Of a stretch of DNA of 64,000 nucleotides, positions 2,926-60,075 are shown one piece after another. Positions within the stretch are counted from its first letter, which is position 1. Each line of letters opens with the position of its first letter. The notes beneath the pieces were generated by a model that was not told the origin of the DNA, searched no databases, and worked only from the letters and a program-made list of their open reading frames with translations. Location of the stretch: assembly GCA_963811325.1 (NCBI GenBank), contig CAWEQT010000001.1, positions 2,328,758-2,392,757 of the forward strand, written 5' to 3'. A program made the position numbers and the translations under genes. This stretch comes from an uncultured delta proteobacterium (GTDB taxonomy: Bacteria; Desulfobacterota; Syntrophia; Syntrophales; Smithellaceae).

Positions 2926-4824
2926 TCAATGGCAAAATCCTCTGACTTTAGCACCTTCTAATATTCTGCAATTTCCTAATTCACACCCTTTTTGCGCATC
3001 ATAACAACCAAACTCTTTCTTGCCCTGATTTAAATAAACAAAACCCCTGTTGTTGTAAGCATCGGCATTATCCGGCTTCAGCCGGATGGCCTCGTTATAG
3101 TTTTCGATGGCTCGCTGATACTGACCGAGTTTAACGTAATCGGTTCCCCTGTTGTTGTAGGCATCGGCATAATTCGGTTTAAGGGTGATGGCCTTATTGT
3201 AGTCATTGATTGCTAGTTGATACCGACCCTTTATGCCGTAAGCCATCCCCCTGTTGTAATAGGCACCGGCATAATTCGGTTTAAGGCGTATGGCTTCATT
3301 GAAGTCATCGATGGCTCGTTGGTGCTGGCCAAGGGCAAAGTAAGCGATTCCTCTGTTGTTGTAGGCATAGGCATAATTCGGTTTAAGGCGTATGGCGTTA
3401 TTGAAGTCATCGATGGCTCGTTGGTGCTGGCCAAGGATAAAGTAAGCAGTTCCCCTGTTGTTGTAGGCATAGGCATAATTCGGTTTAAGGCGTATGGCTT
3501 CATTGTAATGATAAATAGCCTCACTTTTTTTGCCTTCCTTAGCCATTGCAAGATTATTATGGGCCAGATAGTTATCCTTTGTTACACACAAAGCGTGGCT
3601 GAAGAGAGTGCTACTGTTTTTCCAATAACCGCATTGTTGCCAGGTTAAAACTGCCATGATGGTTACAGCGACTATTGAGACCGGGAATAAAATCTTTCTG
3701 CATATGTTTTCACTCTTGCTCAAAGACGGAATGCCCCAGGCCAGCATAACAGCAATGCCTATAGAAGGCAGATAATCGTAGCGGTCGGCCATCGCGAAGT
3801 TTCCTATCTGAATAATCCCGATAACCGGCAGAAGAGTTATTGCATACCATAGCCATCCCACAAAGAGATACGGCAACCGTTTCACCATCATGATGACAAC
3901 AGCACTGATAACGAGAATCAAAAAAGTGGTTCCCAGAACTTGCCATAGCGGAATTTGCTCGGGAAAAAGATAAAAAATAGCCAGATCATGAGGCCAGAAT
4001 GTTTTCTCCAGATAAGTTACAAAAGCAACGGGGGCGTTGGTAAGCCGGGAAGTCAGAGAAAAGGAAAAACGTTCCATGGACGGATGATACTGATTGTACT
4101 GAGTATAAATCGTAATTACAGAAAAGACTGCTGATAGAATAAAAAAAGGTGTTTTTTCCTTCAACTGCCATAATACCCAATTGACTTTCCTAGATTCAAA
4201 ATGTCCTAGCGGCCAGTAATCCAGAAGTATCATGACTACAGGCAAGGTGACAACCATGGGTTTGCTCATAAGCGCACAGACAAAGCATAAAAGAACAACC
4301 AGATATCTTTTTATAACCGGTTTTTCCGTGTAATAGACATACAAACAAAGAGTAAGCATACAGAAAAACGCGCTTAAAACATCTTTGCGTTCAGATATCC
4401 AGACAACCGATTCCACATGAAGCGGATGAAGCGCGAAAAATGCCGCAACAAAGGCGCTTTTCCAAATATCTCCGGTCATGCGGTTAAAAAGCCAGAACAG
4501 TAGCAGAGTGCTCAATATGTGCAGGATAAGGTTTGTTAGATGATAGCCACCGGCATTCAGGCCATGAAGTTGATAATCGAACATCAATGACAGCCATGTC
4601 AAAGGATGCCAGAATTCAGCATAAGTGGAACTAAATGCCCAGCAAAATCCGTCCGGTGTGATTCCGGACTGAATATTACTGTTTTCTATAACGTAAACGG
4701 GATCATCAGCATTGACGAAGTCATATTGATTAACCTGCCAAAAAACAGCAAGTGTAACAATAGCTAAAACCAAATATATGATTAGTATTTGTTTCTTAGG
4801 ACTTATATTTATCTTATTTAACAT
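2926..4824 (-). CDS. membrane protein with PMT_2/TMTC-like N-terminal domain and C-terminal TPR array
   Basis: 632-aa ORF. Multi-pass N-terminal domain with FVNADDPVYVIENSN near the first loop, as in bacterial TMTC/DUF1736-type TPR proteins. About six 34-aa TPR units (AIRLKPNYAxAYNNRG...), then a Cys-rich tail. Confidence 0.75.
   Translation of the reverse strand: MLNKINISPKKQILIIYLVLAIVTLAVFWQVNQYDFVNADDPVYVIENSNIQSGITPDGFCWAFSSTYAEFWHPLTWLSLMFDYQLHGLNAGGYHLTNLILHILSTLLLFWLFNRMTGDIWKSAFVAAFFALHPLHVESVVWISERKDVLSAFFCMLTLCLYVYYTEKPVIKRYLVVLLCFVCALMSKPMVVTLPVVMILLDYWPLGHFESRKVNWVLWQLKEKTPFFILSAVFSVITIYTQYNQYHPSMERFSFSLTSRLTNAPVAFVTYLEKTFWPHDLAIFYLFPEQIPLWQVLGTTFLILVISAVVIMMVKRLPYLFVGWLWYAITLLPVIGIIQIGNFAMADRYDYLPSIGIAVMLAWGIPSLSKSENICRKILFPVSIVAVTIMAVLTWQQCGYWKNSSTLFSHALCVTKDNYLAHNNLAMAKEGKKSEAIYHYNEAIRLKPNYAYAYNNRGTAYFILGQHQRAIDDFNNAIRLKPNYAYAYNNRGIAYFALGQHQRAIDDFNEAIRLKPNYAGAYYNRGMAYGIKGRYQLAINDYNKAITLKPNYADAYNNRGTDYVKLGQYQRAIENYNEAIRLKPDNADAYNNRGFVYLNQGKKEFGCYDAQKGCELGNCRILEGAKVRGFCH
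3065..3505 (-). repeat. 102-bp periodic coding repeats (TPR units); units 3269-3370 and 3371-3472 nearly identical
   Basis: GCATAATTCGG-type unit starts at 3065, 3167, 3269, 3371 and 3473 (exact 102-nt phase). The two central units differ at only a handful of positions. Confidence 0.9.
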
Positions 4825-21538: not shown

Positions 21539-21777
21539 TGATAATAGCCCAAACTTTCTTCAAAATAAGTTAACACCAAAACCCATTCTGAATGAAAAAT
21601 GGCTCTTCAATCCAGAATGGGTAGGTTTGAGTATTTGTTTAATCTTCTTTCCCGGATAATTCAATTAATAATTTCTTCACCGGAATTTTCCATTAAAAAT
21701 AAATGTTTTCCCAATATATGTTGACAACCGCCTCGTCTTTGATAGACTGCCGCATATCATTTTAATGGAGATTAAAT

Positions 21778-22112: not shown

Positions 22113-22210
22113 GGAAGTGCCAAGGTCACTGGTGGGCCTCCCGGACTTCAAATCCGGTGTGGGGCGCTAAAACCGTCCCAGGTGGGTTCGATTCCCATGC
22201 ACTTCCGCCA
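22113..22210 (+). tRNA. selC: tRNA-Sec (anticodon UCA)
   Basis: 98 nt. 8-bp acceptor stem GGAAGTGC/GCACTTCC. Anticodon loop CTTCAAA (TCA at 22148-22150). Long variable arm (6-bp stem, 9-nt loop). T-arm GTGGG-TTCGATT-CCCAT. Discriminator G and encoded CCA. Confidence 0.92.
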
Positions 22211-25252: not shown

Positions 25253-25330
25253 CAGATTGCCCGCATGCGCACATAGGGGTTCCCTGCCATAACCTAAAGG
25301 TCATCATGATCTGAGAGGTGGCGCAATGAC
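25253..25330 (+). repeat. degenerate REP-like intergenic element (GATTGCCCGC ... CATAACCTAAAGGTCA ... GCGCAATGAC)
   Basis: Shares ordered blocks with 25955-26072 on the other side of the PilZ gene (CATAACCTrAAGGTCA at 25288-25303 and 26042-26057). Confidence 0.5.
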
Positions 25331-25954: not shown

Positions 25955-26072
25955 TGTTCCTGGATTCCCGCTTCTAGCGTTCGCAATGGCAGGATGGGTT
26001 TCCACATATGCCGGAGTTCGCGACAAAAAGATGCCTCCCCTCATAACCTGAAGGTCACAAGAGGGAGAGAAG
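25955..26072 (+). repeat. degenerate REP-like intergenic element (CTGGATTCCCGC ... CGCAATGGC ... CATAACCTGAAGGTCA)
   Basis: Direct-orientation partner of 25253-25330. Confidence 0.5.
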
Positions 26073-33495: not shown

Positions 33496-34393
33496 TGAGG
33501 GATTCTTAAAAGCGTATTTACAGGACAGGAAGAAAATTGTGGAAGAAGCATTGCAACATTATCTACCCGCTGATGATATTCCGGCAAAGATATATGAGGC
33601 TGTTCGTTACAGTGTTTTTAACGGAGGAAAGCGAATCAGGCCGATTCTCTGCCTGGCGGCGGCGGAAGCGGTTGACGGCGATCTGGCTTCGGCCATGCCG
33701 ATTGCCTGCGCTTTGGAATTGATTCATTCTTACTCCCTGATTCATGATGACTTGCCGGCAATGGACGATGATGATTTCCGGCGTGGCAAGCCTAGCTGTC
33801 ACAAAGCTTTCGGAGAGGATATAGCCATACTGGCCGGCGACGCGCTGCTTACGGAGGCCTTTGTTCTTTTATCCCGAGCGGAAAAAGTCAGATTATCCGG
33901 ATTCTCCGCAGAAAGGCGTTTGGCGGTTATACAGGAAATTGCCTATGCTGCCGGAATTTGCGGCATGGTTGGCGGTCAGGCTCTTGATGTGCTTTCGGGA
34001 AAATCAGAATCCGACGAAATCACGCTGCGGGAAATTCACCGGCGCAAAACGGGAGCTTTAATTGTTGCCGCGGTAAAATCAGGGGCTATTATTTTTAACG
34101 CCGGCAAAAATAAAATTCAATCTCTGGCAGAATACGGAATAAATATGGGTCTGGCTTTTCAGATAGCAGATGACATCTTAAATGTCGAAGGGGACCGTGA
34201 GTTGATGGGCAAGGAAACCGGCAGTGATGCCTCCCGTGACAAACTTACCTATCCGTCTTTGCTGGGAATGGAACTGGCGAAGGAAAAATTAGTAAAGTAT
34301 ATAGACGCGGCAGTGGCGAGTCTTTCCGGTTTTGATGAGAGGGCTATGCCGCTTATTGTCATTGCGCGCTATATAATGGAAAGAAAATCATAG
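33485..34393 (+). CDS. ispA: (2E,6E)-farnesyl diphosphate synthase / polyprenyl synthetase
   Basis: FARM LIHDDLPAMDDDDFRRG and SARM FQIADDILN. ATG 33485 overlaps the xseB stop; the track's upstream start at 33467 is less likely. Confidence 0.9.
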   Translation: MEGDEGFLKAYLQDRKKIVEEALQHYLPADDIPAKIYEAVRYSVFNGGKRIRPILCLAAAEAVDGDLASAMPIACALELIHSYSLIHDDLPAMDDDDFRRGKPSCHKAFGEDIAILAGDALLTEAFVLLSRAEKVRLSGFSAERRLAVIQEIAYAAGICGMVGGQALDVLSGKSESDEITLREIHRRKTGALIVAAVKSGAIIFNAGKNKIQSLAEYGINMGLAFQIADDILNVEGDRELMGKETGSDASRDKLTYPSLLGMELAKEKLVKYIDAAVASLSGFDERAMPLIVIARYIMERKS

Positions 34394-34423
34394 GCAAAAT
34401 TTAATATTGGAAAGGATTTTGTT

Positions 34424-36394: not shown

Positions 36395-37138
36395 ATGAAT
36401 ATGGCCACTCAAAAAATTCGTTTGGACGAATTGCTCGTTAATCGAGGAATCGCGCCCACGCTGGAAAAAGCCCGCGCGCTGATCTTAGCCCGGGCGGTGA
36501 AAATTAATGAAACATATCTGGATAAGGCGGGCGCGCCTGTTGCGGTTGATGCCGAAATACGAATAAAGGGTCAAGACAATCCCTATGTTAGCCGCGGGGG
36601 ATTAAAACTGGAAGCTGCTTTAAAAGAATTTAAACTAAATGTTGAAAATATTGTCGTCCTTGATGTCGGGGCTTCCACCGGAGGCTTTACAGATTGCCTT
36701 TTGCAGGCAGGCGCCAGGAAAGTTTACGCTCTTGATGTAGGTTATGGCCAGTTAGCCTGGAGGTTGCGTGAAGACAGACGCGTAGTCGTAATCGAACGCA
36801 CGAATATTCGTTATTATGACGGTGCTGATTTGGACGAACGGATTGATCTTGTCACAATTGATGTTTCTTTTATTTCTCTGAAAACTGTTATTCCGGCGGT
36901 CTTAAAATTTTTAGGAGACGGGGCGCGGATTCTAGCGCTGATTAAACCGCAGTTTGAAGCCAAAAGGGAAGAAGTGGGAAGTCATGGGGTGGTTAAAGAC
37001 GCCTCTGTTCATGAACGCGTAGTGCGGGATATCAGCGGATTTTGCGTAGCTAAGAATTTAGGGGTTGAAGGAACTTGTGTATCGCCTGTTTTAGGTCCGG
37101 CGGGGAACTGGGAATTTTTTATCCTAGCGCGAAAGTAA
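36395..37138 (+). CDS. tlyA: TlyA-family rRNA 2'-O-methyltransferase (S4 + FtsJ domains)
   Basis: 247 aa. RLDELLVNRG (S4 domain), VSRGGLKL, and the SAM motif LDVGASTGGFTD. Confidence 0.9.
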   Translation: MNMATQKIRLDELLVNRGIAPTLEKARALILARAVKINETYLDKAGAPVAVDAEIRIKGQDNPYVSRGGLKLEAALKEFKLNVENIVVLDVGASTGGFTDCLLQAGARKVYALDVGYGQLAWRLREDRRVVVIERTNIRYYDGADLDERIDLVTIDVSFISLKTVIPAVLKFLGDGARILALIKPQFEAKREEVGSHGVVKDASVHERVVRDISGFCVAKNLGVEGTCVSPVLGPAGNWEFFILARK

Positions 37139-37262
37139 TACCATTTCTAAATCAAAGATGATATTGAGGCAGCTAAGCGGAGGCGACGAGGCTTATTATA
37201 CATACGTTGAGGAAGCCGACAACGACGCCAACAAAAATAGCGTTTTGATTTAGAATTGGTAT
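37138..37262 (+). repeat. 125-bp intergenic element with 20-bp terminal inverted repeats (MITE/ERIC-like), copy 1
   Basis: ATACCATTTCTAAATCAAAG ... TTTTGATTTAGAATTGGTAT. Begins on the last base of the tlyA stop and ends 9 nt before the ispH ATG. About 90% identical to copy 3 and about 80% to the reverse complement of copy 2 (by eye). Confidence 0.9.
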
Positions 37263-37271
37263 AAGAGCAAA

Positions 37272-38999
37272 ATGGAAATTAAACTCGCCAGGACAGCGGG
37301 CTTTTGCATGGGTGTGCGCAGGGCCGTGGATATTGTATTGGATATAGCGCAACATGAAACCCGCCGACGTATTTATACTTACGGTCCTTTGATTCATAAC
37401 CCGCAAACAATTGAATTACTCAAGAGCCGCGGCGTTAAACCTGTTGAAAGTATCGAAGAGATAAAAGACAGGGAAAACGCTATTCTGATTATTCGCGCTC
37501 ATGGTATCGCTCCGGCTGAAAGGAAAAAAATTAAGGAAATCGGCATTAAGGTTGTAAATGCAACCTGTCCTAAAGTCGGTTACGTGCAATCCATCATCAA
37601 AAAACATACTGCTCTTGGTTATACCGTGGTGATCGTAGGCGATAAGGAACATCCGGAGGTTGACGGTCTTTTAGGTTACGCAGGCGAGAAAGGCATTATT
37701 CTGTCCACTTTGGACGATGTGGATAAATTATCTTCCCATGATAAAATTTGTGTTGTCGCTCAAACAACTCAAGATTCAAATAATTACGGCAAGATTGTTG
37801 AAAAAATAAAGAAAAGCTGCTCTAAAGCGGTTGTATTTAACACTATTTGCTCTTCAACTGAACAAAGACAAGCTGAAGTTATAGCAATGGCTGGTGAAAT
37901 GGACGCAATGTTTATCGTTGGCGGAAAAAACAGCGCCAATACCAGAAGGCTGGCTGACCTTGCCCAAAAGCAACAATCTTCCACTTTTCAAATCGAAACT
38001 CCAGCAGAAATGGGAAATATTAATCTAGGTCCCTATAATCGTATCGGGGTTTCAGCAGGCGCTTCCACCCCTAACTGGATTATCGATCGGGTGATGGATA
38101 AAATCATGGAAGGTCAAAGCCGTAAGTTAAAAAACTTGGGTAAATTGCTCAATCTATGGATATGGGCTATCAAAACGGATATTTATTCCGCTGTGGGCGC
38201 AGGGTGTCTTTGTCTGGTTTGCATGCTGTTGCAGAATATACCGGTGAACCTGTCTTTTGTAGCGATTGCCTCTCTTTATGTATATGCAATACATGTCTTA
38301 AATCATTTGATTAGCCGAAAGCCTACTGGTCTTGTCGGCTCTTTTCGGGAAGAAAGCTATCACCATCATAAAAAAATATATTTATACACCGCTTTACTGT
38401 CTATTGTCGCCGCCCTTGCATTGGCATTTAATAATGCAATCATTGTCTTTATTTTTCTATTTGTTATTTCATTTGCCGGTGTGCTTTATAATATGAGGAT
38501 TCTGCCTAATAGATGGCATTTCCGGAGTTTAAAAGATTTGCCCGGTTCAAAAAATATATCTATGTCTGCAGCCTGGGGAATCGTAGCGGCAATCTTGCCT
38601 GCCCTGGGCAAAAATTATTCCTTTAATACCGGTTTAATCGTTGCTTTTTGCTTTACCTTTGGGATGGTTTTTATCCGTTCAGCAATGTCGGATATTCTGG
38701 AAATACAAAGTGATAAATTGATAGGACAGGAAACTATTCCCGTTTTTTTCGGAAAAACGCTGACAATAACCATACTTAAAATTACTTCATTGATATTATT
38801 CACTCTTCTTATTCTTTCTTATCCGGCAGGCTGGAGTACATCTCTAAGTTTTTTTCTGTTACCGTGTATATTATATATATGGATTTGTTTTCAGTTTTGT
38901 GATAAAAAACAAGTGCTTTCCGGGGCTGTTAAGGAAGGCATTCTGGAAACCAGCTATATTATAGCTGGTTTTTGTGTTTTCTTATGGCGTGTTTTTTGA
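37272..38999 (+). CDS. ispH: IspH (HMBPP reductase) fused to a C-terminal UbiA-like polytopic membrane domain
   Basis: Residues 1-285 are IspH (GFCMGVRRA, NATCPKV, NTICSST cluster cysteines, GASTPNW). Residues ~290-575 have about 8 hydrophobic helices with SDILEIQSDKLIGQETIPVFFG, resembling the second Asp-rich motif of UbiA prenyltransferases. Confidence 0.85.
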   Translation: MEIKLARTAGFCMGVRRAVDIVLDIAQHETRRRIYTYGPLIHNPQTIELLKSRGVKPVESIEEIKDRENAILIIRAHGIAPAERKKIKEIGIKVVNATCPKVGYVQSIIKKHTALGYTVVIVGDKEHPEVDGLLGYAGEKGIILSTLDDVDKLSSHDKICVVAQTTQDSNNYGKIVEKIKKSCSKAVVFNTICSSTEQRQAEVIAMAGEMDAMFIVGGKNSANTRRLADLAQKQQSSTFQIETPAEMGNINLGPYNRIGVSAGASTPNWIIDRVMDKIMEGQSRKLKNLGKLLNLWIWAIKTDIYSAVGAGCLCLVCMLLQNIPVNLSFVAIASLYVYAIHVLNHLISRKPTGLVGSFREESYHHHKKIYLYTALLSIVAALALAFNNAIIVFIFLFVISFAGVLYNMRILPNRWHFRSLKDLPGSKNISMSAAWGIVAAILPALGKNYSFNTGLIVAFCFTFGMVFIRSAMSDILEIQSDKLIGQETIPVFFGKTLTITILKITSLILFTLLILSYPAGWSTSLSFFLLPCILYIWICFQFCDKKQVLSGAVKEGILETSYIIAGFCVFLWRVF

Positions 39000-45671: not shown

Positions 45672-47240
45672 TCAGAACGGGCTTCCTGTAACGGCGTTCA
45701 ATTTCCCTGTGGTCGAATCGATAGTAAAGGCATAGACAGCGCCGGTATTCACATCTGATGCATAGGCATAGGGCCCTTGGGGGTCAATCGTAACGGTAGT
45801 AAGACTTGCAAAACTTATCCCTGATGAAATTTGCTGAATATTAGTTAATGCTCCATTGGTTCCGATTGAATAAACCCAGATGGTTCCATCATTCCTATTT
45901 GACACATAGGCAAATGCTCCTGATGTATTAGCGTAAACCGTGACTGGGTTAGAATACATCTCTGCAGTCACCGCCGTTCCGGTGCTCAATGACCCATCGG
46001 AATTAATAGTATAGACCGAGATATTGCCGGAACCCATATTGGACACATAGGCATATGCTCCTCCTGATGGGTTAGTGTAAACTGTGACGGACATAGGATA
46101 CGTCCCTGCGGTCACCGCTGTTCCGGTGCTCAATGACCCGTCGGAATTAATCGTATAGACCGAGATATTGCCGGAACCCATGTTGGGCACATAGGCATAT
46201 GCTCCTCCTGATGGATTAGCGTAAATCGTGACGGAGGTAGGATACGCCCCCGCAGTCACTGTCGGGGTATTAAAGGAAGGGATCAATGCTCCGGGTGTGG
46301 TGGTATTATCTATGGTGTAGGCCGAAATAGTACCGTCAGTCATATTGGGCACATAGGCATATGCTCCTGATGAGTTAGCGTAAACCGTGACGGAGGTAGG
46401 ACTTGTCCCGGCAGTAAACGGGCTTCCTGTAACGGCGGTCAATGACCCGTCGGAATTGATGATATAGGCCGAAATAGTGTCGGAACCTATATTGGGCACA
46501 TAGGCATATGCTCCTCCTGATGGGTTAGCGTAAATCGTGACGGAGGTAGGACTTGTCCCGGCAGGGAACGGGTTTCCTGCTGAAACGGGGACGGAGACCA
46601 ATGCCCCTGTGGTCTGATTGATGTCATAGGCCGAAATAGTGTCGGAACCCATATTGGGCACATAGGCAAATTCTCCTGATGGGTTAGCGTAAATCGTGAC
46701 GGAGGTAGGACTTGTTCCGGCAGGGAACGGGTTTCCTGCTGAAACGGGGACGGAGACCAATGCCCCTGTGGTCTGATTGATGTCATAGGCCGAGATGTTA
46801 CCAGGACTGGAATTTGACACATAGGCAAATAGCCCTGATGGGTCAACCGTAACAGGACTGGAACTCATCACGCAGCTCACGGCCACGTCGTACACTGGCG
46901 AGCCGCTGATTGTGCCGCTGCCATTACTGACGACGCAAGTTTGGGAAGGGTTGGTCGGATGTGTTTTTATCGTGACGGAGTAGGCAGTTCCGCTTGTCAG
47001 CGCGGTGGCAAAGGCAAAAGCACCATTGACAGAGATTGTCTGGTCATCTCCTCCATTGTCCTGTAACACCAGCCCGCTGCCGATCATACCGCTGACCGTG
47101 CCGCTAATTGTGTAGTTGTATCCCGGTGAGGTGCCGCAGGACGCCAAAATGGCCACCAGACCAACAGCCCATACGGTCTTGACCAATATCCTCCAAAATA
47201 TTCTAAATTCACGTTTTTTATCTATGGACAGTGCCAGCAT
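45672..47240 (-). CDS. lipoprotein with lactonase-type (YVTN-like) beta-propeller repeats
   Basis: Start moved to ATG 47240 (GGAG 6 nt upstream; lipobox ILASCG). N-terminal Ig-like segment, then about 8 repeats of ..AYVPNMGSxxISAY.I...G.L......AGT.PTSVT.YANPSG... Confidence 0.8.
   Translation of the reverse strand: MLALSIDKKREFRIFWRILVKTVWAVGLVAILASCGTSPGYNYTISGTVSGMIGSGLVLQDNGGDDQTISVNGAFAFATALTSGTAYSVTIKTHPTNPSQTCVVSNGSGTISGSPVYDVAVSCVMSSSPVTVDPSGLFAYVSNSSPGNISAYDINQTTGALVSVPVSAGNPFPAGTSPTSVTIYANPSGEFAYVPNMGSDTISAYDINQTTGALVSVPVSAGNPFPAGTSPTSVTIYANPSGGAYAYVPNIGSDTISAYIINSDGSLTAVTGSPFTAGTSPTSVTVYANSSGAYAYVPNMTDGTISAYTIDNTTTPGALIPSFNTPTVTAGAYPTSVTIYANPSGGAYAYVPNMGSGNISVYTINSDGSLSTGTAVTAGTYPMSVTVYTNPSGGAYAYVSNMGSGNISVYTINSDGSLSTGTAVTAEMYSNPVTVYANTSGAFAYVSNRNDGTIWVYSIGTNGALTNIQQISSGISFASLTTVTIDPQGPYAYASDVNTGAVYAFTIDSTTGKLNAVTGSPF
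46467..46787 (-). repeat. near-identical tandem coding repeats (162 + 159 nt) inside the beta-propeller gene
   Basis: Units start at 46467 and 46629, with the next at 46788. They differ by one 3-nt indel and a few substitutions. A second near-identical 144-nt pair lies at about 45975-46262. Confidence 0.9.
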
Positions 47241-47526
47241 TTTTTCTCCATGTATGCGGATTATTTTTAAAATTGTTTGAGTTTTACTTTTTTGGTGTGG
47301 AAGTATATGAAGAATTATTTCATATGTCAATAAATATTGGCTGCACGAATATTGGCATGATATAATAACCATCGAATGGCCTTGAATTTTACTTAACAAA
47401 ATATTAGTTTACATTAAACGTTTGTTTTCAGATAGTTAACTTGCAATTAAATGTAATATAAAAAATTTAAGCTAACGAATATGGTGGAATATTCAGATAA
47501 GTTAAAGATTGAAAAAGATATAAGCA

Positions 47527-50662: not shown

Positions 50663-51463
50663 ATGTTTGATCTTTCCCAGTTTTCACTAAAAGAAAAAGT
50701 AGCAGTAATTACCGGCGGCGGCCGTGGCATCGGCCAAGCCATAGCATTTGCTTTTGCCAAGGCCGGAGCAATAGTTATCGTAACCAGCCGTAAGGCACAG
50801 GATCTGGAAGCAACGGCAAACGAAATTAAGGCCTTCGGCGGTGAAGCTTTTCCGCTTCCGGCTCATTTGGGCAAAACAGAAGAAATTAAAAAAATGATTG
50901 ATGCCGTAATGGCAAAATACGGACGAATTGATATTCTGGTCAACAACGCCGGCGCGAGTCCCGCCATGGGCTCCGTCCTTGAATGTGATGGGCGACTATG
51001 GGATAAACTAATGGATATAAATCTGAAAGCTGCTTACTTCGTCAGTCAGGCCGCAGCCAATATTATGGTAAAGCAGGGTGGGGGAAAAATAATCAATATC
51101 GCTTCCGTGGACGGTCATAATCCGGAACCCGGTTTGAGCATCTATTCTATTTCCAAAGCCGGCATCAGAATGCTGACAAAAGCCTTTGCCAGTGAACTGC
51201 TCCGTTTTAATATTCAAGTAAACACTATCGCTCCGGGGCCAATCAGCACCAAGATGATGAATTCCCACTGGGGACACCTGCCGCCCGAAGAAGCTCAAAA
51301 AGTAAAAGAAATGATAAAAAAAGCTTTGCCTTCCGGTCGAATCGGCAATCCCGATGAAATAGCAGGCGCCGCTCTATACCTGGCATCCAACGCAGCAAGC
51401 TATACCACGGGAGCGGAAATTTTGATCGACGGAGGCTTACTGCTGGGCAATCATCTTTCCTGA
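50663..51463 (+). CDS. SDR-family oxidoreductase
   Basis: TGGGRGIG cofactor motif, NNAG, catalytic YSISKAG. AAAGGAG SD before ATG 50663. Confidence 0.9.
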   Translation: MFDLSQFSLKEKVAVITGGGRGIGQAIAFAFAKAGAIVIVTSRKAQDLEATANEIKAFGGEAFPLPAHLGKTEEIKKMIDAVMAKYGRIDILVNNAGASPAMGSVLECDGRLWDKLMDINLKAAYFVSQAAANIMVKQGGGKIINIASVDGHNPEPGLSIYSISKAGIRMLTKAFASELLRFNIQVNTIAPGPISTKMMNSHWGHLPPEEAQKVKEMIKKALPSGRIGNPDEIAGAALYLASNAASYTTGAEILIDGGLLLGNHLS

Positions 51464-51465
51464 TT

Positions 51466-51590
51466 ATACCATTTCTAAATCAAAGCTCTATCTTTGTTGG
51501 CAGCGTCGTCAGCTTCCTCAACGTATTATTAATATGCCTCGTCACTTACCTCCTGCCGCCTCGATATCATCTTTGATTTAGAAATGGTAT
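51466..51590 (-). repeat. 125-bp TIR element, copy 2 (inverted relative to copies 1 and 3)
   Basis: ATACCATTTCTAAATCAAAG ... CTTTGATTTAGAAATGGTAT (perfect 20-bp TIR). Starts 2 nt after the SDR stop and ends 43 nt before the next ATG. Confidence 0.9.
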
Positions 51591-51633
51591 AATGAAAAAA
51601 GTAAAATAAACACTGACAAAAGGGAGAATTAAA

Positions 51634-59537: not shown

Positions 59538-59939
59538 ATGCCGGAAAGAAAAATTCGCGTGATGGTTGCCAAACCGGGGCTTGATGGCCACGATCGCGGC
59601 GCGCGAATTCTTGCGCGCTGTTTCCGCGATGCCGGATTTGAAGTTGTTTACACAGGCTGTCATCAAACACCTGAACAAATTGTTGCGGCCGCTATTCAGG
59701 AAGATGTTGATCTGGTTGGTTTGAGCTGTCTTTCCGGCGCTCACCGCATGCTTTTCCCGCGGGTTGTGGAACTTTTGCGCGAAAAAGACGCGTCCGATAT
59801 CACCGTCATCGGCGGCGGCATCATTCCTGAACAGGATTTACCTATGCTTTACGATGCCGGCATCAAAGCGATTTTCACTCCCGGCGCCTCGCTTGATTCC
59901 ATTGTGGAATGGATTAAAACAAATATAAAACCACACTAA
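59538..59939 (+). CDS. acyl-CoA mutase small subunit (cobalamin-binding domain)
   Basis: 133 aa. DxHxxG motif (GLDGHDRGA), ...SxL...GG. Confidence 0.92.
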
Positions 59940-60063
59940 TACCAATTCTAAATCAAAGATGATATTGAGGCGGCTAGACAGAGGCTACGAGACGTATTAT
60001 ACATACGTTGAGGAAGCCGACAACGACGCCAACAAAAATAGTGCTTTGATTTAGAATTGGTAT
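59939..60063 (+). repeat. 125-bp TIR element, copy 3
   Basis: ATACCAATTCTAAATCAAAG ... CTTTGATTTAGAATTGGTAT (perfect 20-bp TIR). Begins on the last base of the B12-subunit stop and ends 12 nt before the meaB ATG. Confidence 0.9.
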
Positions 60064-60075
60064 AGGCAAACAAAT

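Follow-up and report, generated by a model that had tools for sequence, protein, structure and literature searches.

Inverted-repeat elements of 123 bp between operon genes of Smithella and related Syntrophales: a probable MITE family with T-N-A target duplication

Among the small repeats of bacterial intergenic regions, RUP of Streptococcus pneumoniae is linked to IS630-Spn1 and to a TA duplication, and BOX of the same species has neither terminal inverted repeats (TIRs) nor a target-site duplication. The TIR duplex of the Correia elements of Neisseria is a substrate of RNase III and some copies carry promoter-like motifs, and the ERIC or IRU sequences of enterobacteria exist in size variants made by internal insertions and alter mRNA decay when located at the 3' ends of genes (PMC10969869). 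[quoted passage not shown] Here, we report on a repeat of about 125 bp that occurs three times in a 64,000-nt stretch of DNA, hereafter the window, from an uncultured delta proteobacterium of the Smithellaceae (assembly GCA_963811325.1, contig CAWEQT010000001.1, positions 2,328,758 to 2,392,757). With a probability of roughly 0.8 we interpret these repeats as a family of non-autonomous transposons, or MITEs, that duplicate a T-N-A target and sit harmlessly between the genes of operons; as far as resources and literature were searched, the family is undescribed.

Copies in the window and the duplicated target

A preliminary description, made from the letters of the window, placed the three copies at 37138-37262 (+), 51466-51590 (inverted) and 59939-60063 (+) and gave them 20-nt TIRs. 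Both statements hold, as the 20-mer ATACCAWTTCTAAATCAAAG has six matches in the window at no more than one mismatch, with 0.01 expected from 100 shuffles, and the six form three inverted pairs, each 125 nt apart. The right terminus of copy 1 contains one mismatch (TTTTGATT... in place of CTTTGATT...). Identity is 92% between copies 1 and 3 and 82-86% between either of them and copy 2, which is inverted. A family profile (nhmmer) found no further copy or fragment in the 64 kb. The repeat stands as described but its exact limits do not, for the first A and the last T belong to the target duplication (72 + 69 copies, below). The element proper is 123 bp long and lies at 37139-37261, 51467-51589 and 59940-60062, in the following setting.

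37136-37138, + strand: left target duplication of copy 1, TAA, which is the stop codon of the TlyA-like gene (from the sequence and the end of the open reading frame, ORF)
37139-37261, + strand: copy 1, 123-bp element TACC...GGTA in 'ATGA-left' orientation, at the tlyA-like/ispH junction (from TIR matches, alignment, folding and profile)
37262-37264, + strand: right target duplication of copy 1, TAA; GAGCAAA and the start codon of ispH come next
51464-51466, + strand: triplet flanking copy 2 on the left, TTA, which adjoins the TGA stop of the SDR gene (51461-51463)
51467-51589, - strand: copy 2, 123-bp element, inverted relative to copies 1 and 3, with perfect TIRs, at the SDR/isochorismatase junction
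51590-51592, + strand: right flank triplet of copy 2, TAA, differing in its middle base from the left TTA
59937-59939, + strand: left target duplication of copy 3, TAA, which is the stop codon of the B12-binding subunit gene
59940-60062, + strand: copy 3, 123-bp element at the B12-binding subunit/meaB junction, a lineage-specific insertion
60063-60065, + strand: triplet flanking copy 3 on the right, TAG, which departs from TAA by a single base

Pfam recovered the gene pairs that had been named for the flanks: a TlyA-like protein (FtsJ + S4, 36395-37138) and IspH (LytB with a UbiA-like domain) around copy 1, an SDR and an isochorismatase around copy 2, and a B12-binding subunit (59538-59939) and MeaB around copy 3. 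The distances to these genes had also been given correctly. Upstream stop codons end at 37138 (copy 1) and 59939 (copy 3), exactly on the first base of the 125-bp repeat, and at 51463, 2 nt ahead of its start, for copy 2; the next start codons follow 9, 43 and 12 nt downstream of copies 1, 2 and 3.

The duplicated target was read from two sets of copies with both ends, 72 from genome loci together with the window and 69 non-redundant ones from 120 metagenome loci. Counted from the limits of the 125-bp repeat, a T is found at -2 in 66 of the 72 copies and an A at +2 after the end in 60, and the base just outside is equal on both sides in 55 (TT 30, AA 20, CC 3, GG 2). Exact TNA duplications surround 41 of the 72 (TTA 23, TAA 14, TGA 2, TCA 2). 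The independent metagenome set behaves alike, with an equal middle base in 54 of 69 copies and an exact duplication in 36 (TTA 17, TAA 16), and TTA and TAA together make up 37 of the 41 and 33 of the 36 exact duplications. As the directly repeated base is framed by T and A, the duplicated target is the 3-bp T-N-A and the element itself, 123 bp long, reads TACC...GGTA. A 3-bp duplication that is mostly TTA or TAA is the one expected of PIF/Harbinger- or IS5-type, that is Tourist-like, elements. In copy 2 the duplication has decayed, with TTA on the left and TAA on the right.

A duplication of TA had been proposed earlier and is not sustained by the 72 + 69 copies, in which the repeated base lies outside that TA and the unit is T-N-A. 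Variation at the third base of ATACC is matched, in the inverted sense, by its partner in GGTAT (A-T 19, T-A 13, G-C 3), and ends occur as ATACC..GGTAT, ATTCC..GGAAT and ATGCC..GGCAT; the internal 'TA' is therefore a part of the inverted repeat and no duplication of TA. The same reading explains why the stop codon and the repeat had seemed to share an A in two copies, because the left TAA of copies 1 and 3 is itself the upstream stop codon.

Distribution, mobility and placement of the family

A scan with an exact 17-mer pattern over species-representative genomes returned at least 118 stretches, and the fetched loci, cited below by L numbers, were read as 8-15-kb pieces, about 2 Mb in total around some 250 copies. 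By nhmmer, true copies are present in 86 of 118 genome loci among the matches listed and in 104 of 120 metagenome loci, and the other 32 genome stretches are single chance 17-mer matches in unrelated taxa. More than 140 further paired-end copies exist beyond the window, and the possibility allowed for in the preliminary description, that there might be three copies only and no empty sites, clearly does not apply. True genome copies come from about 39 species-level assemblies among the matches listed, mostly metagenome-assembled genomes (MAGs) named Smithella, Smithellaceae, Syntrophaceae, Syntrophales or unclassified 'delta proteobacterium'; single carriers elsewhere, again among the matches listed, belong to the Syntrophorhabdales (L011) and the Desulfomonilia (L035). 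Two carrier MAGs are labelled Pseudomonadota, of which L010 shares synteny with a contig of the Syntrophales (L001). Two cultured Nitrosomonas also carry the family, N. communis Nm44 (L095) and Nitrosomonas sp. Nm34 (L111), with copies of 102-103 bp that are alignable over their whole length rather than at the ends alone and that are located between ordinary genes of the chromosome at a density of two to three per 8 kb. From their sequences, these copies would imply a cross-phylum transfer of the family or of its partner. The metagenome copies originate from peat, sediment and digesters. Three MAGs contain at least 9-11 loci each by the exact 17-mer scan, and the window has three copies in its 64 kb.

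Outside these groups the searches gave only chance matches or none. The plasmid collection yielded chance fragments of 25-33 nt only, the IMG/VR viral contigs 34 single chance matches and no true copy, and 5,426 E. coli genomes, in which ERIC and REP occur, no match to copy 1 at E<=0.01 (blastn, word 11). Five AT-rich metagenome contigs with the 19-mer and ATG in common have no second end and were treated as one chance match sampled repeatedly. Rfam gave no match at the gathering score in the window except an unrelated tRNA-Sec, and nothing even at E<=10 for 37100-37300. Literature searches by organism or name and, in the open literature, by sequence string retrieved nothing about the element. 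The earlier remark that the sequence was not recognised is in agreement with the results for Rfam, the E. coli genomes, the plasmids and the open-literature strings.

Comparison with relatives revealed filled and empty alleles at three sites, the kind of polymorphism that had been suggested as a check. Four Smithella relatives with a B12-binding subunit of 92-95% identity have no element at the site of copy 3, and their B12/MeaB spacer measures 19-52 nt versus 136 nt in the window. At the other two sites it is the window that lacks the element.

34392-34411, no strand: empty site in the window, occupied by a 125-bp copy in Smithella sp. SMAG_U14785 (L014:6991-7115)
about 21709-21715, no strand: empty site in the window, occupied by a 67-bp deletion derivative in Syntrophaceae bog_1110 (L024:5511-5577), from a rough junction alignment

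The two remaining window copies have orthologues. Copy 1 recurs at the tlyA/ispH junction of Smithella sp. SMAG_U14785 (L014, about 3990-4250) with an 84-nt insert in its right TIR, and copy 2 at an SDR/isochorismatase junction (L088:7660-7807), in the same orientation, as a 148-bp copy with extra modules of its own. Orthologous copies are 86% identical, as against 79-89% for the flanking genes and 83-88% for non-orthologous copies. Because they are shared with other species, copies 1 and 2 are old, and copy 3 is specific to its lineage. The window stems from a Smithella-like host. Its flanks are 79-91% identical at the DNA level to Smithella MAGs, and in a large protein collection no protein exceeds 95% identity to its B12-binding subunit, the nearest being named Smithella or Smithellaceae. 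In contigs of the Smithella sp. SCADC type (L278/L279, 1003-1350) a small GIY-YIG nuclease gene lies between the large subunit of methylmalonyl-CoA mutase and the B12-binding subunit. It is not at that place in the window or in other relatives and, being present in some relatives only, would therefore be another mobile insertion in the same operon.

The placement in transcribed intergenic spacers of operons that was noted for the window is borne out. In the family, only one of 72 copies lies inside an ORF of at least 100 aa, and the contexts are convergent in 21, co-oriented in 31 and divergent in 9. For 17 of the 72, an ORF of at least 100 aa has the duplicated triplet as its stop. Under a null model in which every TNA of the restored spacer has the same chance of being used, stop codons were used 14 times in the genome set against 8.2 expected (P about 0.004) and 7 times in the metagenome set against 3.7 (P about 0.035). 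Without the element the spacers of copies 1, 2 and 3 are about 7, 47 and 11 nt long and contain 1, 8 and 1 candidate TNA sites; at the short spacers of the window the stop codon is the only, or nearly the only, TNA that can be used without damage to a gene. The few divergent contexts and the single copy inside an ORF fit a target rule combined with purifying selection, and the excess of stop codons would reflect the same two factors, perhaps with a mild preference for gene ends. Orientation relative to transcription was tested and shows no bias, with 14 sense and 14 antisense copies, and 7:9 for copies on stop codons.

The repeat is short and non-coding, with TIRs, a target duplication, many copies and empty-site polymorphism, in line with the MITE-type element first suspected. 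Judged by structure it is a MITE in every respect except a known partner. We propose that a transposase acting in trans would bind both ends and insert the element at T-N-A, mostly TTA or TAA, and that a 3-nt staggered cut would lead to duplication of the triplet. TAA and TGA stop codons would be permitted targets, with the duplication restoring the triplet on both sides, so that the upstream frame would stay closed and the downstream ribosome-binding region would be left untouched. Such insertions would survive in operon spacers of 7-50 nt because the stop is restored and the ribosome-binding region remains intact. The family would have been active for long in Smithella and the Syntrophales and would have spread to other lineages including Nitrosomonas. 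An inserted element would be co-transcribed and add a hairpin of about 125 nt to the mRNA; if it altered how the RNA is processed, how efficiently translation terminates at the adjacent stop codon or how translation is coupled, this would be a by-product, the insertion breaking up the close stop-start spacing that permits such coupling. A stable stem 0-2 nt after a stop codon could hinder the terminating ribosome, as may be compared with REP near stops, and the stems of 19-20 bp are presumably long enough for RNase III.

The hairpin, the partner transposase and alternative explanations

The modal size of the element is 123 bp (125-126 bp with the flank bases) in both sets; 36 of the 72 copies measure 125-126 bp by the original boundaries and derivatives range from 46 to 293 bp. 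The TIR proper is 19 nt, TACCAWTTCTAAATCAAAG, and the 19-20-nt TIRs are the most conserved part of an alignment of 39 copies. The element has no coding capacity, being too short and too rich in stops for a transposase. Inside the TIRs the sequence is an imperfect palindrome, which makes the whole element one long hairpin-forming sequence, with RNA folding z-scores of -4.4 to -9.1 on both strands. The 20-bp terminal duplex predicted for the RNA is returned by folding as 19-20 bp and is perfect in copies 2 and 3. For 39 canonical copies RNAalifold gave one long hairpin built of the TIR stem, two further short stems inside it and, at the centre, a CGTAT...ATACG hairpin; on this structure 96% of alignment cells are paired, a share that drops to 30-36% on sliding the partner by 1-3 columns. 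Changes on both sides are seen in nine stem pairs, a number reached by none of 500 shuffles. The clearest is column pair 28-109 (C-G 21, U-A 16, U-G 2, none broken), which switches within both subfamilies, and smaller counts of compensatory change occur at 44-92 and 62-73. At three positions the stem has G.U when read on one strand, which would become C.A on the opposite strand. Changes that compensate each other in the stem need either selection on the hairpin or templated correction from arm to arm, and the covariation of the arms can equally come from hairpin selection, templated quasi-palindrome correction or shared descent.

Size variants are of two kinds, the longer ones being the canonical element with extra hairpin modules at fixed places and the shorter ones internal deletions. 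Decay, of a kind typical of MITEs, shows in solo ends, in deletion derivatives of 46-98 bp and in copies interrupted by nested insertions. One subfamily has a different right end (…AAAGTTAGCCAAAGAAAGCGAATTGGTAT) that has only the outer ten bases in common with the others; this suggests that these ten are what any transposase must recognise, since they are what the variant end retains.

Three kinds of smaller sequence were encountered in association with the family. A module of about 70 nt, AGTGAAACTCGAATTACAG...CTGGAATTCGTTAGTTGAACTGTCCCGCTTCAGCGGGGC, forms two hairpins and is inserted right after GGCGGC of the element (L027, L042, L063, L071, L077, L081, L084, L105, L108, L110, L219, L245); the orthologous copies L071:3822 and L081:2732 differ in the length of this module (150 vs 228 bp). 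An insert of about 84 nt that starts CGG(T/G)AGCGCAT(A/C)CCCG.CAGGGGAGCGCATAA lies at the same point inside the right TIR in several genomes (L014 about 4060-4145, L039, L197, L261) and seems to be a second small element that targets the end of the MITE. A micro-repeat of 15-18 nt, GTGACCTTYAGGTTA, occurs 52 times at no more than 2 mismatches in the roughly 2 Mb of fetched loci, mostly of Smithella type (L004, L006, L022, L027, L041, L063, L074, L082, L086, L096, L110 and others), and twice in the window against 0.04 expected, at 26044-26058 (-) and 25290-25304 (-). It was found in a hairpin loop in the cases read, and 22 matches are within 350 nt of a MITE TIR. Those read near a MITE occupy the central loop, the loops of GC hairpins or an extra module, in both orientations, and others sit in unrelated hairpins, as at 26044 of the window, where the repeat lies in the loop of a stem, CTCCCTC..GAGGGGAG, that resembles a terminator and precedes a T-run. 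The micro-repeat recalls the 'very small mobile repeated elements' of cyanobacteria.

A partner transposase was looked for in the interior of every solo end in the 118 genome and 120 metagenome loci and also by pairing outer 10-mers at 450-3500 bp. The window itself has none between or next to matching ends, as had been stated before. Several candidate segments of the fetched loci were rejected, as they are ordinary genes that separate copies or fragments happen to enclose: L022 has hydrogenase maturation and radical-SAM genes and L017 ordinary genes; L260 holds two ordinary co-oriented genes, thiM/thiE-like by eye, L043 ordinary chromosomal genes (histidine kinase and response regulator-like by eye) and L111 ordinary Nitrosomonas chromosomal genes. 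L053:388-1227 has a Gp49/HTH toxin-antitoxin pair and no transposase between its ends. In this last segment, from contig_16 of Smithella sp. D17, family TIR-like ends with 3 and 2 mismatches surround 840 bp that encode a Gp49/HigB-like toxin (PF05973, E 7e-27) and an HTH_3 antitoxin-like protein; the segment represents either captured cargo between two ends or a cassette that entered a copy. Since no partner was found, we infer movement by a transposase, and the family to which it belongs, from TIRs, target duplication and polymorphism alone. A member of the IS5-type/PIF-Harbinger family is the best guess from these features, tentative and at somewhat less than even odds. The IS1031, IS427 and ISL2 groups of the IS5 family make duplications of 2-4 bp, and many accepted MITE families have no known partner.

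Several observations weigh against a simple MITE. No autonomous partner with matching ends was present in the window or in the 8-15-kb pieces that make up the roughly 2 Mb of fetched loci. The ends of IS5-family elements usually start with G (GG or GA), and those of the present element start with TACC. Two of three window copies have imperfect duplications (TTA/TAA and TAA/TAG), the stop-codon excess is modest at about 1.8-fold and derives from a crude gene model of longest ORFs of at least 100 aa, and simple binding of a transposase does not predict that changes in the stem compensate each other.

Domestication of the hairpin would extend the MITE reading and is compatible with it: as RNA or as extruded DNA the hairpin would be under selection as an operon module, serving as an RNase III/E site, a stabiliser or a brake on termination and coupling, with mobility being only its means of spread. 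The compensatory changes at 28-109, 44-92 and 62-73 lie outside the minimal ends, the old orthologous copies have remained about as similar (86%) as the flanking coding DNA (79-89%) next to spacer that has diverged, and stop codons are used in excess. Effects of RNase III and RNase E have precedents in Correia, which is cut by RNase III at its TIRs, and in ERIC, which changes mRNA decay at the 3' ends of genes (PMC10969869). Against a strand-specific role, copies lie in both orientations alike (14:14 overall, 7:9 on stops), yet the three G.U positions of one strand would be C.A on the other; orthologous copies are no more alike than non-orthologous ones, many copies are cut down, interrupted or empty in relatives, and the covariation may come from templated correction or subfamily descent. 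The shuffle control leaves relatedness in. We consider such domestication rather unlikely. Decidedly unlikely as a whole is a wider version, in which a Tourist-like MITE that prefers stop codons and restores them has a selected full-length hairpin that acts as a mobile RNA module of operons for processing, decay or termination-coupling, has been transferred between Desulfobacterota and Betaproteobacteria (Nitrosomonas) and serves as a landing pad for smaller loop-targeting repeats. The elements could also be transcriptional signals and no transposon relics, either outward or antisense promoters or intrinsic terminators. An antisense promoter had been suggested from a motif opposite copies 1 and 3, which has a 10/12 match to the sigma-70 consensus.

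37195-37222, - strand: TTGTCG-16-TATAAT in copy 1, a sigma-70-like motif that copy 3 has as well, at 59996-60023

The motif is indeed present in these two copies, but it is no feature of the family, being lacking in copy 2 and kept in 13 of 33 alignable copies, and shuffles give a mean of 0.8-1.2 such matches per 400 nt; it is best seen as an accident of one subfamily. Intrinsic terminators were not called at any copy, the stems being followed by TAAGAGC, TAATGAA and TAGGCAA rather than a T-run, and with a random orientation relative to genes on top of this a signal in transcription is very unlikely. The imperfect palindrome, its intergenic location near gene 3' ends and the small hairpin modules nested in it are reminiscent of REP/BIME sequences spread by a RAYT (Y1) transposase or by recombination. 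Against such an origin, which is extremely improbable, are the length of 123 bp versus the usual 20-40 nt, the clear 3-bp duplication and sharp ends, and the occurrence of copies singly and not in alternating clusters; no RAYT-like ORF was noticed beside the copies, as judged from ORFs inspected by eye and one Pfam scan only. As to the IS630/Tc1-mariner type, the preliminary description had suggested an IS630/Tc1-like partner on account of the TA dinucleotides that flank or overlap the ends of all three window copies. With the repeated base outside that TA, the unit being T-N-A, with the second base of the internal 'TA' covarying in the inverted and not the direct sense, and with no IS630-like gene seen in any locus, a MITE of this type can practically be dismissed. 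The T-N-A-duplicating MITE remains our preferred explanation.

Other features, significance and comparison with known elements

The IspH downstream of copy 1 (37272-38999) consists of a LytB domain (residues 3-278) fused to a C-terminal UbiA-prenyltransferase-like region (368-545, E 1e-9), an unusual architecture. Elsewhere in the window a tRNA-Sec gene at 22113-22206 (+) matches Rfam RF01852 with 77 bits and, by its presence, indicates that the host uses selenocysteine. Two large ORFs encode repeat-domain proteins, one at 45672-47399 (-) with internal tandem or direct repeat units of 130-160 nt at 45853-46831, the other at 2926-4824 (-) with internal units of 102 nt at 3035-3544.

The family explains the recurrent inter-gene 'gap' of 125 bp in MAGs of Smithella and the Syntrophales, organisms with a key part in the syntrophic degradation of alkanes and fatty acids, either uncultured or difficult to grow. 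It may serve as a marker for typing strains by presence or absence and for assembly breaks. The family is a clean bacterial example of a TWA-duplicating MITE able to use a stop codon as target, showing how a transposon can sit in tight operons without cost to either reading frame. The natural filled and empty alleles at the B12 subunit/meaB, tlyA/ispH and SDR/isochorismatase junctions are test cases for the effects of a hairpin between cistrons. The stop-codon logic, the spread between Desulfobacterota and Nitrosomonas and these natural alleles are useful rather than surprising and do not overturn current understanding.

Several described systems resemble the element in part. RUP and BOX are likewise small, hairpin-forming intergenic repeats, and BOX is modular in a manner similar to the size variants seen here, with unrelated sequences. 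ERIC/IRU in enterobacteria, including Yersinia, is an imperfect palindrome of about 127 bp in transcribed intergenic regions, in either orientation (PMC10969869); it differs in taxa and sequence, with no match in the 5,426 E. coli genomes, and a TNA duplication is demonstrated for the present element. Chunjie, a MITE found in Geobacter uraniireducens, from another lineage of the former Deltaproteobacteria, also leaves an operon intact and comes in size variants and many partial copies; with 178-235 bp it is apparently a different family (PMC10969869, citing Chen et al. 2008). Correia (CREE/NEMIS) is of the 100-150-bp class with long TIRs, hundreds of copies and frequent co-transcription (PMC10969869), but it duplicates TA and not TNA, has an unrelated sequence and inhabits another phylum; RNase III cleavage and an IHF site have been shown for Correia, and no IHF consensus was seen by eye in the 125-bp element. 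The Tourist MITEs of PIF/Harbinger, such as mPing of rice, and the IS5 elements differ from the present family in its bacterial host, palindromic interior, lack of a partner found and lack of recognisable similarity at the ends, but share with it the short, non-coding form, the TIRs and a 3-bp target duplication, nearly always of TTA or TAA (PMC2836001, PMC2213677). In this company, the repeat of Smithella and the Syntrophales is a new family of an ordinary element type.

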